Assembly (NCBI RefSeq): GCF_055900595.2
Contig: NZ_CM148325.1
Reading direction: 5' to 3' (one strand)
Length of the DNA stretch: 64,000 nt
The position numbers and the translations under genes are program-made. The notes under the pieces were generated by a model, which searched no databases, was not told the origin of the DNA, and saw only the letters and a list, made by a program, of their open reading frames with translations. Below, one piece after another: positions 22,779-26,986 of this stretch (position 1 is the first letter of the stretch; each line of letters opens with the position of its first letter).

Positions 22779-23465
22779 ATGTTGTATGGGTTTTCAGGTG
22801 TTATTTTACAGGGTGCGCTCGTCACGCTGGAGCTGGCTATCAGCTCTGTAGTGCTCGCTGTAATCATCGGTTTAATTGGCGCTGGCGGTAAGCTCTCGCA
22901 AAATCGGCTTTCGGGCCTTATTTTCGAAGGCTACACCACGCTGATTCGTGGCGTGCCGGACTTGGTGTTGATGCTGCTGATTTTCTACGGTTTGCAGATT
23001 GCACTAAACACGGTGACGGAGGCGATGGGCGTCGGGCAGATTGATATCGATCCGATGGTCGCTGGTATTATTACTCTCGGTTTTATCTACGGTGCTTATT
23101 TTACCGAAACGTTCCGTGGCGCGTTTATGGCTGTGCCGAAAGGGCATATAGAGGCGGCGACGGCGTTCGGTTTTACTCGTGGGCAAGTGTTTCGGCGGAT
23201 CATGTTTCCGGCGATGATGCGTTACGCCCTGCCAGGCATTGGCAACAACTGGCAGGTGATTCTCAAATCTACCGCTTTGGTTTCGTTACTCGGCCTGGAA
23301 GATGTGGTCAAAGCCACGCAACTGGCAGGCAAAAGTACCTGGGAACCGTTCTATTTCGCCATCGTCTGTGGCGTGATTTATCTGGTTTTCACCACCGTTT
23401 CCAATGGTGTGCTGCTGTTCCTTGAGCGCCGCTACTCCGTGGGTGTGAAGAGGGCTGACCTGTGA
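22779..23465 (+). CDS. hisQ: Histidine ABC transporter permease
   Basis: 228-aa polytopic ORF with ABC permease EAA-type loop. Confidence 0.92.
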   Translation: MLYGFSGVILQGALVTLELAISSVVLAVIIGLIGAGGKLSQNRLSGLIFEGYTTLIRGVPDLVLMLLIFYGLQIALNTVTEAMGVGQIDIDPMVAGIITLGFIYGAYFTETFRGAFMAVPKGHIEAATAFGFTRGQVFRRIMFPAMMRYALPGIGNNWQVILKSTALVSLLGLEDVVKATQLAGKSTWEPFYFAIVCGVIYLVFTTVSNGVLLFLERRYSVGVKRADL

Positions 23466-24178
23466 TCGAAATCTTACATGAATACTGGAAACCGCTGTTG
23501 TGGACCGACGGTTATCGCTTTACCGGTGTGGCGATTACCCTTTGGTTGCTGATTTTGTCGGTTGTGATAGGTGGAGTTCTGGCGCTGTTTCTGGCGATTG
23601 GTCGCGTCTCCAGCAATAAATACATCCAGTTTCCAATCTGGTTATTTACTTATATTTTTCGCGGTACACCGCTGTATGTTCAATTGCTGGTGTTCTATTC
23701 CGGCATGTACACGCTGGAGATTGTTAAGGGTACCGAGTTCCTTAACGCCTTTTTCCGCAGTGGCCTGAATTGTACTGTGCTGGCGCTGACGCTTAACACC
23801 TGTGCTTACACCACCGAGATTTTTGCCGGAGCAATCCGTTCGGTACCGCACGGAGAAATTGAAGCCGCCAGAGCCTATGGCTTTTCGACCTTTAAAATGT
23901 ATCGCTGCATTATTTTGCCTTCAGCGCTGCGTATTGCGTTACCGGCCTACAGTAATGAAGTAATCCTGATGCTGCACTCTACTGCGCTGGCGTTTACGGC
24001 CACGGTGCCGGATCTGCTGAAAATAGCCCGTGATATTAACGCCGCCACGTATCAACCTTTTACCGCTTTCGGTATCGCCGCGGTGCTCTATTTAATCATC
24101 TCTTATGTCCTGATCAGTCTGTTCCGCAAAGCGGAAAAACGCTGGTTGCAGCATGTGAAACCTTCTTCAACGCACTGA
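23462..24178 (+). CDS. hisM: Histidine ABC transporter permease
   Basis: 238-aa polytopic ORF, GTG start overlapping the hisQ stop. Confidence 0.92.
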
Positions 24179-24185
24179 GAATACG

Positions 24186-24959
24186 ATGTCCGAGAATAAA
24201 TTAAACGTTATCGATTTGCACAAACGCTACGGCGAACACGAAGTGCTGAAAGGGGTCTCACTGCAAGCGAATGCCGGTGATGTCATAAGTATCATCGGTT
24301 CGTCGGGATCGGGGAAAAGTACCTTTCTGCGCTGCATTAACTTCCTCGAAAAACCGAGCGAAGGATCGATCGTCGTTAACGGCCAGACGATCAATCTGGT
24401 GCGCGATAAAGACGGTCAACTCAAAGTCGCCGATAAAAATCAGCTGCGCTTACTGCGCACACGCCTGACGATGGTATTCCAGCACTTCAATCTCTGGAGC
24501 CATATGACGGTGCTGGAAAACGTCATGGAAGCGCCGATTCAGGTGTTAGGCCTGAGCAAGCAGGAAGCGCGCGAGCGGGCGGTGAAGTATCTGGCGAAAG
24601 TCGGGATAGACGAACGTGCGCAGGGGAAATACCCGGTGCATCTGTCCGGTGGTCAGCAACAGCGTGTTTCCATCGCGCGGGCGCTGGCGATGGAACCGGA
24701 AGTTTTACTGTTTGATGAACCTACCTCGGCGCTCGATCCTGAACTGGTAGGCGAAGTGCTGCGTATTATGCAGCAACTGGCAGAAGAGGGAAAAACCATG
24801 GTGGTGGTGACTCACGAAATGGGCTTTGCTCGCCATGTTTCTACTCACGTCATTTTTCTCCATCAGGGGAAAATAGAGGAAGAGGGCGCGCCAGAACAGT
24901 TATTCGGTAACCCGCAAAGTCCTCGTCTGCAACAGTTCCTTAAAGGTTCGCTGAAATAA
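24186..24959 (+). CDS. hisP: Histidine ABC transporter ATP-binding protein
   Basis: 257-aa ORF with Walker [10 protein letters not shown], signature LSGGQQQRV and Walker [12 protein letters not shown]. Confidence 0.95.
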
Positions 24960-25154
24960 TTCCCTCTCCGGTGGCTAACGCTGCCGGAGTATTTCATGGG
25001 GAATTTGCGAGTCCGCTTCCGCTGAAATGTAAAAGTTGCAGTCCGCTAAAAATACTTCTGAATTCGCTGTCCAAAGATAAAAACTGCCTGCTGCATTGGG
25101 TGTAAATCGTGGTTATTGTCGCGTCATCTTAAATTTGAGGGGTGACGGAACGCC

Positions 25155-26045
25155 ATGACAATATCGACAACTTCCACGCCGCATGATGCGGTATTTAAAT
25201 CTTTTTTACGCCATCCAGACACCGCGCGGGATTTTATTGATATTCATCTTCCCGCGCCGCTGCGCAAACTGTGTGATTTAACGACGCTCAAACTGGAACC
25301 AAACAGTTTTATTGATGAAGATCTGCGGCAATATTATTCCGACCTCTTGTGGTCTGTGAAAACGCAGGAGGGAGCGGGTTATATTTATGTGGTGATAGAG
25401 CACCAAAGTAAGCCGGAGGAATTAATGGCTTTTCGCATGATGCGCTATTCCATCGCGGCGATGCAAAACCATCTGGATGCAGGCTATAAAGAGCTTCCAT
25501 TGGTGATCCCAATGCTGTTTTATCATGGTTGCAGAAGTCCTTATCCTTATTCACTCTGCTGGCTTGATGAATTTGCCGAGCCTGCGATAGCCCGCACAAT
25601 ATATTCATCGGCTTTTCCGCTGGTGGATATTACCGTGGTGCCGGATGACGAGATTATGCAACATCGCAAAATGGCGCTGTTGGAGTTAATTCAGAAACAT
25701 ATTCGTCAGCGCGATCTGTTGGGATTAGTCGACCAAATTGTTTCGCTGCTAGTTACAGGGAACACTAATGACAGACAGCTAAAAGCCCTGTTTAATTACG
25801 TATTACAAACGGGAGATGCCCAGCGTTTCCGTGCATTTATTGGTGAGATAACAGAACGCGCACCACAAGAAAAGGAGAAACTGATGACCATTGCTGACAG
25901 ATTACGTGAAGAAGGCGCAATGCAGGGCAAACACGAAGAAGCTCTGCGTATTGCTCAGGAGATGCTGGAGAGAGGTTTAGACAGAGAATTAGTTCTGATG
26001 GTGACCCGACTTTCGGCAGACGATCTTATCGCGCAAAGCCACTAA
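25155..26045 (+). CDS. rpnB: Recombination-promoting nuclease RpnB (Transposase_31 / PD-(D/E)XK family, domesticated transposase-like)
   Basis: 296-aa [36 protein letters not shown]... typical of YfcI/Rpn paralogues; no flanking terminal inverted repeats seen. Confidence 0.85.
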
Positions 26046-26092
26046 TCCTGTAACACCGGGAATTAACTGGCGGATGTTTGCAGTACACCACA

Positions 26093-26986
26093 TCAGTGAA
26101 CAACATCCGCCAGCGCCTCTTCTAAATCGTACCAGCGAAACGCAAAACCCGCTTCTTCCAGCCTTTTGGGCAAAGCCCGTTGTCCACCTAATACCAGTAC
26201 TGAAGATTCGCCCATTAACAGCCGAATGGCGGTCGCGGGGACGCGCAAAATGGCCGGACGATGCAGTGCATGACCGAGCGCATGGGCAAATTGTTCATTG
26301 CGTACCGGGTAGGGCGAAACCATATTAAACGACCCGCGTAGCTCGTTATCCAGCAGCCAGAGAATACCGTTGACCATATCATCGATATGAATCCAGGCCA
26401 GATACTGCCGACCAAAGCCAATCGGCCCGCCCAGGCCAAGACGAAACGGCGGCAGCATTTTACCGAGGATCCCGCCGTCCGGTGCAAGCACCACGCCGGT
26501 ACGCAGCAGGCACACACGTGTTTTGTCGCTTTGCGCCCGACAGGCAATCTCTTCCCAACGAGCGCAGAGTTTGTGGGTAAATTCGTTATGCGGCGGTTCC
26601 TCTTCAGTAACAACCACTTCACCTAAGTCGCCATAATAGCCCGTTGCCGAACCGGAAATGAGTACCGACGGCGGCGTGTCGCTGGCATTAATCAAATCGA
26701 CCAGTTTTTGCGTAATATTCCAGCGGCTTTGGCAGAGACGCTCTTTTTGCTCGTGAGTCCAGCGTTTATCAGCAATCGGTTCTCCGGCCAGGTTGATTAC
26801 CGCATCAACGCCGTTGAGGTTACTTTGATCGGCAAGCCCTTGCCATAGTGTCACCCGGGGGCCGATAACGGAGCTGGCTTTCTGCGGGTTACGCGTCACT
26901 ACCGTGATTTGATGGCCCAGCTCCAGCAAACGCGGAATCAAATGGCGACCAATTAATCCCGTCCCTCCGGTGATCACTATGTTCAT
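26093..26986 (-). CDS. yfcH: NAD-dependent epimerase/dehydratase-family protein
   Basis: 297-aa ORF with N-terminal Rossmann motif ITGGTGLIG. Confidence 0.88.

Follow-up and report, generated by a model that had tools for sequence, protein, structure and literature searches.

The question raised by this locus is whether an open reading frame that was taken for a domesticated transposase is a tamed mobile element at all and, if not, what its product does in the cell. The frame lies in a 64,000-nucleotide stretch of DNA (contig NZ_CM148325.1 of RefSeq assembly GCF_055900595.2), which is referred to in full as the window.

Identity, family and predicted fold of the gene

Comparison with K-12 confirmed that the open reading frame is a real gene and the chromosomal rpnB of E. 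coli, the name given to it in the original prediction. The encoded protein was 98% identical to K-12 RpnB at the amino acid level and lies in the same hisP-rpnB-yfcH synteny. The hisP stop codon and the rpnB ATG are separated by a gap of 195 nt, with hisJ, hisQ, hisM, and hisP located 5' of the gene and yfcH, folX, and yfcG located 3' on the opposite strand, and the resulting order, hisJQMP-rpnB-yfcH-folX, is that of K-12. The gene, its neighbours, and the codons of its catalytic residues are as follows.

24186..24959, + strand: hisP, final gene of the hisJQMP operon (RefSeq annotation; NCBIfam HisP equivalog 577.6 bits, cut-off 466)
25155..26045, + strand: rpnB-L coding sequence (yfcI), ATG start, 296 codons and 296 aa, full-length PD-(D/E)XK nuclease (toxin)
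25185-25187, 25341-25343, and 25398-25400, + strand: codons of RpnB residues D11, D63, and E82, respectively, equivalents of RpnA residues (residue list from PMC5350276)
25404-25406, 25434-25436, and 25647-25649, + strand: codons of RpnB residues Q84, R94, and D165 (PDDE), respectively, equivalents of RpnA residues (same list)
26093..26986, - strand: yfcH, TIGR01777 epimerase-family oxidoreductase, convergent neighbour 3' of rpnB

The window protein has the same length (296 aa) as K-12 RpnB (YfcI, b2305) and shares with it the position between hisP and yfcH, the context of an internal start, and the short class of the C-terminal product RpnB-S, both treated below. Seven substitutions separate the window protein from that of K-12 (V74A, L118I, K148T, A233T, D272E, M281L, and P288A), the last of which was absent from the other eight orthologues compared.

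Membership of the Transposase_31/Rpn PD-(D/E)XK family, also part of the original prediction, was upheld by the profile searches, the catalytic residues, and the predicted core of the protein. The Pfam profile Transposase_31 (PF04754) matched over positions 1-202 of 203 (E 3.5e-91; 304.8 bits, cut-off 21), and the NCBIfam profile TIGR01784 scored 185.3 bits against a cut-off of 52.1. None of the NCBIfam equivalog models reached its cut-off for RpnB, the RpnA model giving 466 against 583, and the NCBIfam model named 'ISNCY family transposase' scored 462 bits, under its cut-off of 583. A C-terminal three-helix HTH_Rpn_C domain (PF27070) was also present.

The five K-12 paralogues were named RpnA to RpnE by Kingston et al. 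(PMC5350276), who found that purified RpnA is a Mg-dependent endonuclease, in vitro activity being reported for RpnA only, and that the RpnA mutants D11A, D63A, E82A, and Q84K lose all activity. RpnA (YhgA) was 66% identical to RpnB but is encoded at a different locus, feoC-rpnA-bioH. In our alignment every residue required in RpnA was kept in RpnB, namely D11, D63, E82, Q84, R94, and the PDDE motif with D165, and M244 was aligned as well.

To these alignments we added a structural model, for which AlphaFold2 was given 77 diverse homologues; the pool of homologues is large, with one search alone counting 8,314 cluster representatives at 50% identity (E <= 0.001). The model of RpnB (mean pLDDT 91.6) revealed an alpha-beta-beta-beta-alpha-beta core in which D63 opens the second strand (residues 62-70), E82 closes the third (residues 73-83), and Q84 lies one residue beyond. 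After intervening helices, the C-terminal end is formed by a long helix (residues 237-272) and two short helices. The closest solved nuclease folds were those of the endonucleases NucS, AddA, and N.BspD6I, and the predicted fold of RpnB is restriction-endonuclease-like rather than the DDE/RNase H fold of transposases. Designer pentatricopeptide repeat proteins were also matched in the PDB, with E values as low as 5e-14, but these matches were rejected as an artefact because each single stretch was insignificant, the score being the sum of ten repeats on one 30-residue helix pair.

Toxin and antitoxin in one reading frame

The natural role of rpnB had been called poorly defined, a description overtaken by the literature: since 2023 the rpn genes have been described as toxin-antitoxin systems of the gene-within-gene kind that have a role against phages (PMC10400941). 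Overexpression of RpnB was reported to raise RecA-independent recombination 19-fold, to lower viability by 98.7%, and to induce SOS rapidly, RpnB being more toxic than RpnA (PMC5350276). According to Zhong et al. (PMC10400941), all E. coli rpn genes contain an internal translation start that gives rise to RpnS, the C-terminal tail of the protein, and RpnB-S was detected in K-12 cells by ribosome profiling and tagging. In the same work, RpnB-L without RpnB-S was more toxic than the native gene making both, and SOS induction dependent on RpnB was blocked by RpnB-S, which acts specifically on RpnB-L, but not by RpnA-S, so that the two inhibitors are not interchangeable. RpnA-S was found to be a three-helix bundle (PDB; 7th0) that dimerises and joins RpnA-L in a 2:2 complex, and the RpnS region was found to vary among strains in four-residue units that tune specificity (PMC10400941).

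The corresponding elements of the window allele lie near the 3' end of the gene.

25872..25877, + strand: Shine-Dalgarno AAGGAG, read from the sequence, 6 nt 5' of the internal ATG
25884..26045, + strand: rpnB-S, internal ORF in the rpnB-L frame, 53 aa from M244 (ATG 25884-25886), antitoxin and dimerisation domain
25914..25931, + strand: hypervariable spot of RpnB-S, codons 254-259; the window carries the short allele (A-MQGKH)

AAGGAG and the internal ATG were identical in 9/9 Escherichia orthologues compared. M244 is the same residue as the mapped start of RpnA-S, and in the paralogue alignment M244 and E241 were invariant in RpnA, RpnB, RpnC, and RpnE, K240 also being conserved alongside the mapped RpnA-S start. 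M244 and E241 coincide with residues altered in the mutant that abolishes RpnA-S (K240R, E241D, M244L; PMC10400941). The 49-residue chain of 7th0 aligned to residues 244-295 of RpnB and superposed on the C-terminal three-helix domain of the RpnB model at 1.1 A. At the start of rpnB-L the ribosome-binding context was much weaker than the AAGGAG of rpnB-S, in line with the report that RpnS is in excess relative to RpnL (PMC10400941). A sigma-70 consensus scan returned no promoter for rpnB-L or, on the + strand 5' of 25884, for rpnB-S; PMC10400941 cites dRNA-seq evidence of transcription start sites within every K-12 rpn gene. Judged by its sequence, the window allele appears to have the parts of a gene-within-gene toxin-antitoxin system, with the internal start, its ribosome-binding site, and the catalytic residues all in place.

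Our preferred reading, to which we assign a probability of about 0.8, is that rpnB is a single-gene, two-protein toxin-antitoxin module composed of the nuclease RpnB-L and the internal antitoxin RpnB-S, and inherited vertically. RpnB-L (296 aa), as a PD-(D/E)XK DNA endonuclease, would if left unchecked lead to DNA damage, SOS, and cell death. The three-helix RpnB-S (53 aa) would be made in the same frame from the ATG at 25884 behind its strong AAGGAG and, being identical to the C-terminus of RpnB-L, would bind that C-terminus and render the nuclease inactive. Phage infection or a related physiological cue is proposed to release this inhibition, unleashing the nuclease and aborting the infection.

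The gene, its internal start, its catalytic residues, and its fold are results of the present analysis. Toxicity and specific neutralisation have been established by experiment for the 98%-identical K-12 protein. The antiphage role has been demonstrated only for the plasmid paralogue RpnP2, which protects against T-even phages (PMC10400941) and is the only Rpn member with such a phenotype; for RpnB it may be supposed by analogy. No model in PADLOC-DB 2.0 matched RpnB, and that library may predate the description of the family as defence.

RpnP2 and the other plasmid Rpn proteins resemble RpnB in combining Transposase_31 with HTH_Rpn_C and in the logic of a toxin with an internal antitoxin. They differ in being encoded on conjugative plasmids, in being less than 60% identical to RpnB among the matches listed, and in their upstream region, where a TGTGATA motif resembling an extended -10 takes the place of the chromosomal block described below. 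Classical two-gene type II toxin-antitoxin systems likewise have a protein antitoxin, helical and HTH-like, that binds the toxin directly, and the likeness extends to an inverted repeat over the promoter and leader region, at which autoregulation of rpnB is putative. Unlike in those systems, the antitoxin of rpnB has no gene to itself but is encoded by the C-terminal portion of the toxin's reading frame, and the two are therefore obliged to co-evolve.

The antitoxin segment occurs in two length classes. The short class (...EEGA-MQGKH..., 296 aa) was that of the window and of K-12, whereas the long class (...EEGRNDGLILGKR..., 300 aa; RNDGLILGKR) has 12 additional nt at codon 254, 11 residues past M244, and was found in 1,225 complete E. 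coli genomes. Both classes were also found in other Escherichia species. Within a class, the DNA identity of the RpnB-S segment was 96-97%, even between E. coli and E. albertii, whereas between classes it was 86-87% even inside E. coli, a difference of ~13%, larger than that separating the flanking genes of E. coli from those of E. albertii. Homologues had lengths of 296, 300, 304, and up to 320 aa. The four-residue dimorphism sits where variable repeats were placed by Zhong et al., 8-20 residues past the internal Met, and the class pattern fits, at the level of sequence, the hypervariable specificity region that they described (PMC10400941). It hints either at a polymorphism that may predate the species or at exchange between them. 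Over nine Escherichia orthologues, dN/dS was 0.046 for codons 1-243 (nuclease) and 0.27 for the RpnB-S part, from which it follows that the nuclease is maintained and that the inhibitor segment evolves faster. The two natural classes offer material for tests of toxin-antitoxin specificity.

The chromosomal slot, the rpnB-less allele and rival explanations

The claim that rpnB sits in a conserved chromosomal slot held, with a qualification. The slot was the same in five Escherichia lineages, the hisP-rpnB-yfcH order of E. coli recurring in E. albertii and E. whittamii and in the cryptic clades represented by Escherichia sp. E1V33 and Escherichia sp. MOD1-EC7003, but the gene itself has been lost from 670 of the 5,426 complete E. 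coli genomes (12%), in which an 'empty' junction, recognised with a 126-nt probe, was intact. The gene was present at no less than 80% query coverage in 4,744 of the 5,425 complete E. coli genomes with a match. Across Escherichia the N-terminal, nuclease part of the gene was 91-96% identical, similar to the flanking genes, and this flank-like divergence in an unchanged slot indicates vertical inheritance within the genus. The nearest homologues outside Escherichia, from Citrobacter (69%), Kluyvera (68%), and Salmonella (66%), all lie in unrelated slots and are thus not positional orthologues of rpnB.

In rpnB-less genomes such as Esc12 and FCI5, 158 nt separate hisP from yfcH. Two features of the filled allele bear on the loss.

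25066..26066, no strand assigned: segment absent from rpnB-less genomes, comprising rpnB with 89 nt upstream and 21 nt downstream (filled versus empty alignment)
25619..25626, + strand: Chi octamer GCTGGTGG inside rpnB, overlapping the 9-nt repeat CTGGTGGAT (25620-25628), which recurs as CTGGCGGAT at 26067-26075

The filled and empty alleles shared their flanks up to 25065 and again from 26067, and in place of 25066-26066 the empty allele had ~27 nt (ATCTATATTTATTCATCAGCGTTTCCG). Within this remnant, TATTCATCAGCGTTTCCG matched the rpnB interior at 25602-25619 in 16/18 positions, a match reached by 1/300 shuffles, and the match continues into the 9-mer CTGGTGGAT that recurs as CTGGCGGAT at the right junction. 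Since an internal remnant is retained and the right breakpoint falls in a 9-nt direct repeat, the empty allele is, on the evidence of the alignment, a secondary deletion that keeps a scrap of rpnB and not a pristine target site. At the Chi octamer the window allele differs from the K-12 RpnB gene, which has GTTGGTGG there. Several further natural alleles had an in-frame deletion of part of the nuclease domain with the RpnB-S frame kept, and in these alleles, as in the population-level deletion, the junctions lie at short repeats. The absence of rpnB from 670 genomes implies that the gene is dispensable and makes this lineage a natural resource for add-back phage assays.

These deletions bear on the possibility that rpnB is a purely selfish addiction module, costly to lose and of no benefit to the host. 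The toxin-antitoxin behaviour demonstrated by Zhong et al. (PMC10400941) is what such a module would show, a phage phenotype specific to RpnB is absent from published work, and the in-frame alleles shed nuclease parts while preserving the antitoxin frame, as if the antidote must outlive the toxin. However, a vertically inherited, single-copy chromosomal gene profits little from addiction, purifying selection on its nuclease domain is strong across species (the dN/dS of 0.046 given above), and one lineage lost toxin and antitoxin together with no apparent difficulty. We consider this explanation unlikely, although it is the best surviving of the rivals.

The proposal that rpnB serves RecA-independent recombination and gene acquisition, as a facilitator of horizontal transfer rather than in defence or as a toxin, fares slightly worse. 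It draws on the 19-fold recovery of recombinants, yet this effect requires overexpression, deletion of rpnA to rpnD left basal recombination unchanged (PMC5350276), and the constructs used there unknowingly co-expressed RpnB-S (PMC10400941). The joining of both the in-frame and the population-level deletions at short repeats also speaks for it, whereas the restriction of fast variation to the inhibitor segment is a better fit to conflict.

For mobility of the gene itself, we searched for repeats by local alignment with 1,000 shuffles under two definitions of its ends, the flanks 24960-25154/26046-26092 and the ends of the segment missing from rpnB-less genomes. Under both definitions the best score for terminal inverted repeats was 12, attained in 848 of 1,000 shuffles, and for flanking direct repeats or a target-site duplication it was 14, attained in 394 and 374 of 1,000. 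A separate repeat search likewise yielded no inverted pair connecting the two ends of rpnB. The absence of terminal inverted repeats and target-site duplication noted in the original prediction was thus borne out, the flank search giving nothing above chance. The gene had a median of one place per genome in the 5,426 complete E. coli genomes, and rpnB itself was on none of the plasmids among their 20,395 replicons. Members of the Rpn family at large were found in 4,845 of 72,556 plasmid records, mostly conjugative plasmids, and nearly all of these relatives, among the matches listed, were less than 60% identical to RpnB. Five records of the plasmid collection matched RpnB at 95-99%, and the one listed was a 4.9-Mb record of chromosome size. 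With ISNCY transposases and TnsA of Tn7, rpnB shares a historical annotation and, in the case of TnsA, a PD-(D/E)XK core; unlike insertion sequences, it lacks terminal repeats and a target duplication, does not behave as a multi-copy element, and has no transposase gene as a partner.

That rpnB is a domesticated or relic IS transposase captured by the host, or a still cryptic mobile element, is a reading largely refuted and in our judgement highly improbable: its Pfam name, the 462 bits of the ISNCY model, and the patchiness of the family on plasmids and of rpnB among E. coli strains speak for it, but that score lies under the cut-off, the end repeats are not above chance, the gene is single-copy and no plasmid carries it at rpnB-level identity, the rpnB-less allele represents a deletion that keeps an internal remnant rather than a clean empty target, and the fold is predicted to be restriction-endonuclease-like. 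Zhong et al. judged a transposase function of the family highly unlikely and reported a lack of terminal repeats, variable ends, and the lack of any precedent for an autonomous PD-(D/E)XK transposase (PMC10400941), and we saw no sign that the family ever transposed. The label of domesticated transposase is therefore to be corrected: rpnB is a nuclease toxin-antitoxin gene, neither mobile by itself nor a tamed transposase. As a system it is already known and published and nothing here is new in kind, our minor additions being the deletion remnant in 670 genomes, the slot across Escherichia, the two antitoxin classes, and the upstream block.

Some contigs carried hybrid rpn genes, namely rpnA'-'rpnB (L024, with feoC to the left and yfcH to the right), rpnC'-'rpnB (L025 and L026, with panD to the left and yfcH to the right), and rpnE'-'rpnB (L027), the crossovers landing on 17-26-nt runs common to the paralogues. 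Neither of the two junctions tested, rpnA-rpnB and rpnC-rpnB, was carried by any of the 5,426 complete E. coli genomes, the two rpnC-rpnB contigs were SPAdes contigs with a coverage of just 0.65-2.2, and the name of L024 is of the k141 style. We rejected these hybrids, which at first suggested large inversions between paralogues, and regard them, given their absence from complete genomes and the low coverage, as probable though unproven assembly chimeras.

Upstream block and flanking hairpins

Three further elements were found in the gaps on either side of rpnB.

24966..24989, + strand: terminator-like hairpin of hisP, with a GC-rich stem of 10 bp and TATTT after it (terminator scan; -18.3 kcal/mol, z -3.3)
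25113..25154, + strand: rpnB upstream block, putative core promoter and 5' leader of rpnB-L, common to paralogues and conserved across Escherichia species
26067..26113, no strand assigned: 12-bp perfect inverted repeat (stable hairpin) in the rpnB/yfcH convergent gap, arms 26067-26078 and 26102-26113, spanning the yfcH stop codon (26093-26095)

The terminator-like hairpin behind hisP was present in rpnB-less genomes as well. Apart from a PrrB/RsmZ match below threshold (15 bits against 44), which was discarded, an Rfam scan of 24900-26200 found nothing.

The upstream block (~42 nt) was common to rpnA, rpnD, and rpnE and to the chromosomal homologues of Citrobacter, Salmonella, and Kluyvera, and was absent from rpnC and from the plasmid copies. 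Compared between rpnB and rpnE, the upstream regions gave a score of 41, reached by 0/300 shuffles. In every member that has it, the block contained a -10-like hexamer TAnnnT (here TATTGT, 25114-25119), and in rpnB a Shine-Dalgarno-like GGTGA lies 9 nt from the ATG. The same upstream/downstream comparison revealed no homology among paralogues 3' of the rpnB stop codon. These boundaries suggest that what was duplicated among the paralogues is a unit extending from about -45 as far as the stop codon, which probably includes its own core promoter, and the conserved block may control expression of the toxin.

Within the block, an inverted repeat (CGTCATCTT/GGGGTGACG) occupies 25122-25130 and 25139-25147. 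The 5' leader folded into a hairpin at -20.9 kcal/mol (z -3.4), which can form in rpnB and rpnE as well as in the homologues of Salmonella and Citrobacter, but not in rpnA, rpnD, or the homologue of Kluyvera. It showed no compensatory changes, and the variant of Escherichia sp. MOD1 breaks one pair. The repeat at 25122-25147 is a candidate for either a hairpin that hides the ribosome-binding site or an operator; as an RNA structure it can be put forward only as a hypothesis because compensatory variation is lacking and because rpnA, rpnD, and the Kluyvera homologue have the hairpin in degraded form.

A more speculative synthesis, which we hold to be rather doubtful as a whole, would combine three such elements. 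RpnB-S would be a trans-species balanced polymorphism, perhaps maintained by phages; the inverted repeat at 25122-25147, over the -10, leader, and ribosome-binding region, would be an operator for the HTH-like dimer of RpnS or a hairpin that throttles the toxin by hiding the ribosome-binding site; and the Chi/short-repeat site at 25619-25628 would be a hotspot of recurrent deletion.

On the other side of the gene, the inverted repeat between rpnB and yfcH folded on the + strand at -27.7 kcal/mol (z -4.1), and the yfcH-rpnB pair is among the listed convergent transcriptional overlaps of E. coli (PMC12288877).

Length variation within rpnB

Several E. coli and Shigella rpnB alleles lacked an internal part of the nuclease domain through an in-frame deletion; these were found in the following proteins:

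P0013, P0021, P0023, P0025 and P0011: rpnB alleles with an in-frame deletion, mapping to window positions ~25490-25720

The junctions of the example deletions (...KELPLV|DITVV... and ...ARK|MALLE...) appear to be located at short repeats. The reading frame of the antitoxin RpnB-S was intact in all of these alleles, as expected if loss of the toxin is tolerated and the antitoxin is retained. A second length polymorphism of rpnB, unrelated to the RpnB-S repeats, was also located in the nuclease domain, where the E. albertii gene (locus L007) contained four copies of CCTTAT versus two in the window at the position equivalent to 25541-25552, giving PYPYPYPY in E. albertii and PYPY in the window.

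A Chi octamer was located at one junction of the population-level deletion of rpnB:

25619-25626, with the junction also at 26067-26075: Chi octamer GCTGGTGG, inside rpnB

The octamer coincided exactly with the right-hand junction of the deletion, and K-12 rpnB differed in having GTTGGTGG where the window has Chi. There were 15 Chi sites in the window, all of them on the + strand, compared to the 2.2 expected from shuffles. The overlap between Chi and the deletion junction may be a coincidence.

Hybrid rpn genes and a stray RpnB fragment

Four metagenome contigs contained hybrid rpn genes (contig positions):

L024, 751-1641: rpnA-rpnB hybrid
L025, 1224-2111: rpnC-rpnB hybrid
L026, 2013-2900: rpnC-rpnB hybrid
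L027, 188-1078: rpnE-rpnB hybrid

In these genes the 5' portion and left flank were supplied by rpnA (with its neighbor feoC), rpnC (with panD) or rpnE, the 3' portion and right flank (yfcH-folX) were derived from rpnB, and the crossovers were within the most conserved runs of 17-26 nt. If real, such hybrids would signal megabase inversions between rpn paralogues. However, the two junctions tested, rpnA-rpnB and rpnC-rpnB, were found in 0 of 5,426 complete E. coli genomes, and both SPAdes rpnC-rpnB contigs had a coverage of only 0.65-2.2. Based on these data, we set aside the hybrids as real recombinants and concluded that they are probably assembly chimeras.

A 380-nt contig (L013) with a coverage of 0.9, labelled Novosphingobium sp. 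BW1 and belonging to a Novosphingobium assembly, encoded a protein fragment 96% identical to the final 98 residues of RpnB and is almost certainly E. coli contamination in that assembly.

Flanking sequences and plasmid copies

Across window positions 22779-24959, the DNA identities of hisM (93.4%) and hisP (95.7%) to K-12 (L004) were lower than the ~97% of hisQ, rpnB, and folX, suggesting that a patch of the his transport operon is recombined or divergent. Immediately before rpnB was a block shared with other chromosomal rpn genes:

25113-25154: conserved ~42-nt upstream block, with equivalents in loci L014, L016, L017, L018, L020 and L023

This block comprised a TAnnnT hexamer, the inverted repeat CGTCATC...GGTGACG, and GGTGA; it was not found at rpnC. 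Plasmid rpn copies instead had a TGTGATAnnAT motif ~35 nt before the start codon.

On two conjugative plasmids (IncI1/IncK2; L028 and L030), the Rpn gene was preceded by an overlapping ORF and directly followed by another, the start of which overlapped the Rpn stop codon:

L028, 1173-1418 (locus positions): 81-aa ORF
L030, 1209-1454 (locus positions): 81-aa ORF

Separate downstream small proteins of the RpnSs type have been described (PMC10400941), and the 81-aa ORF may correspond to these.
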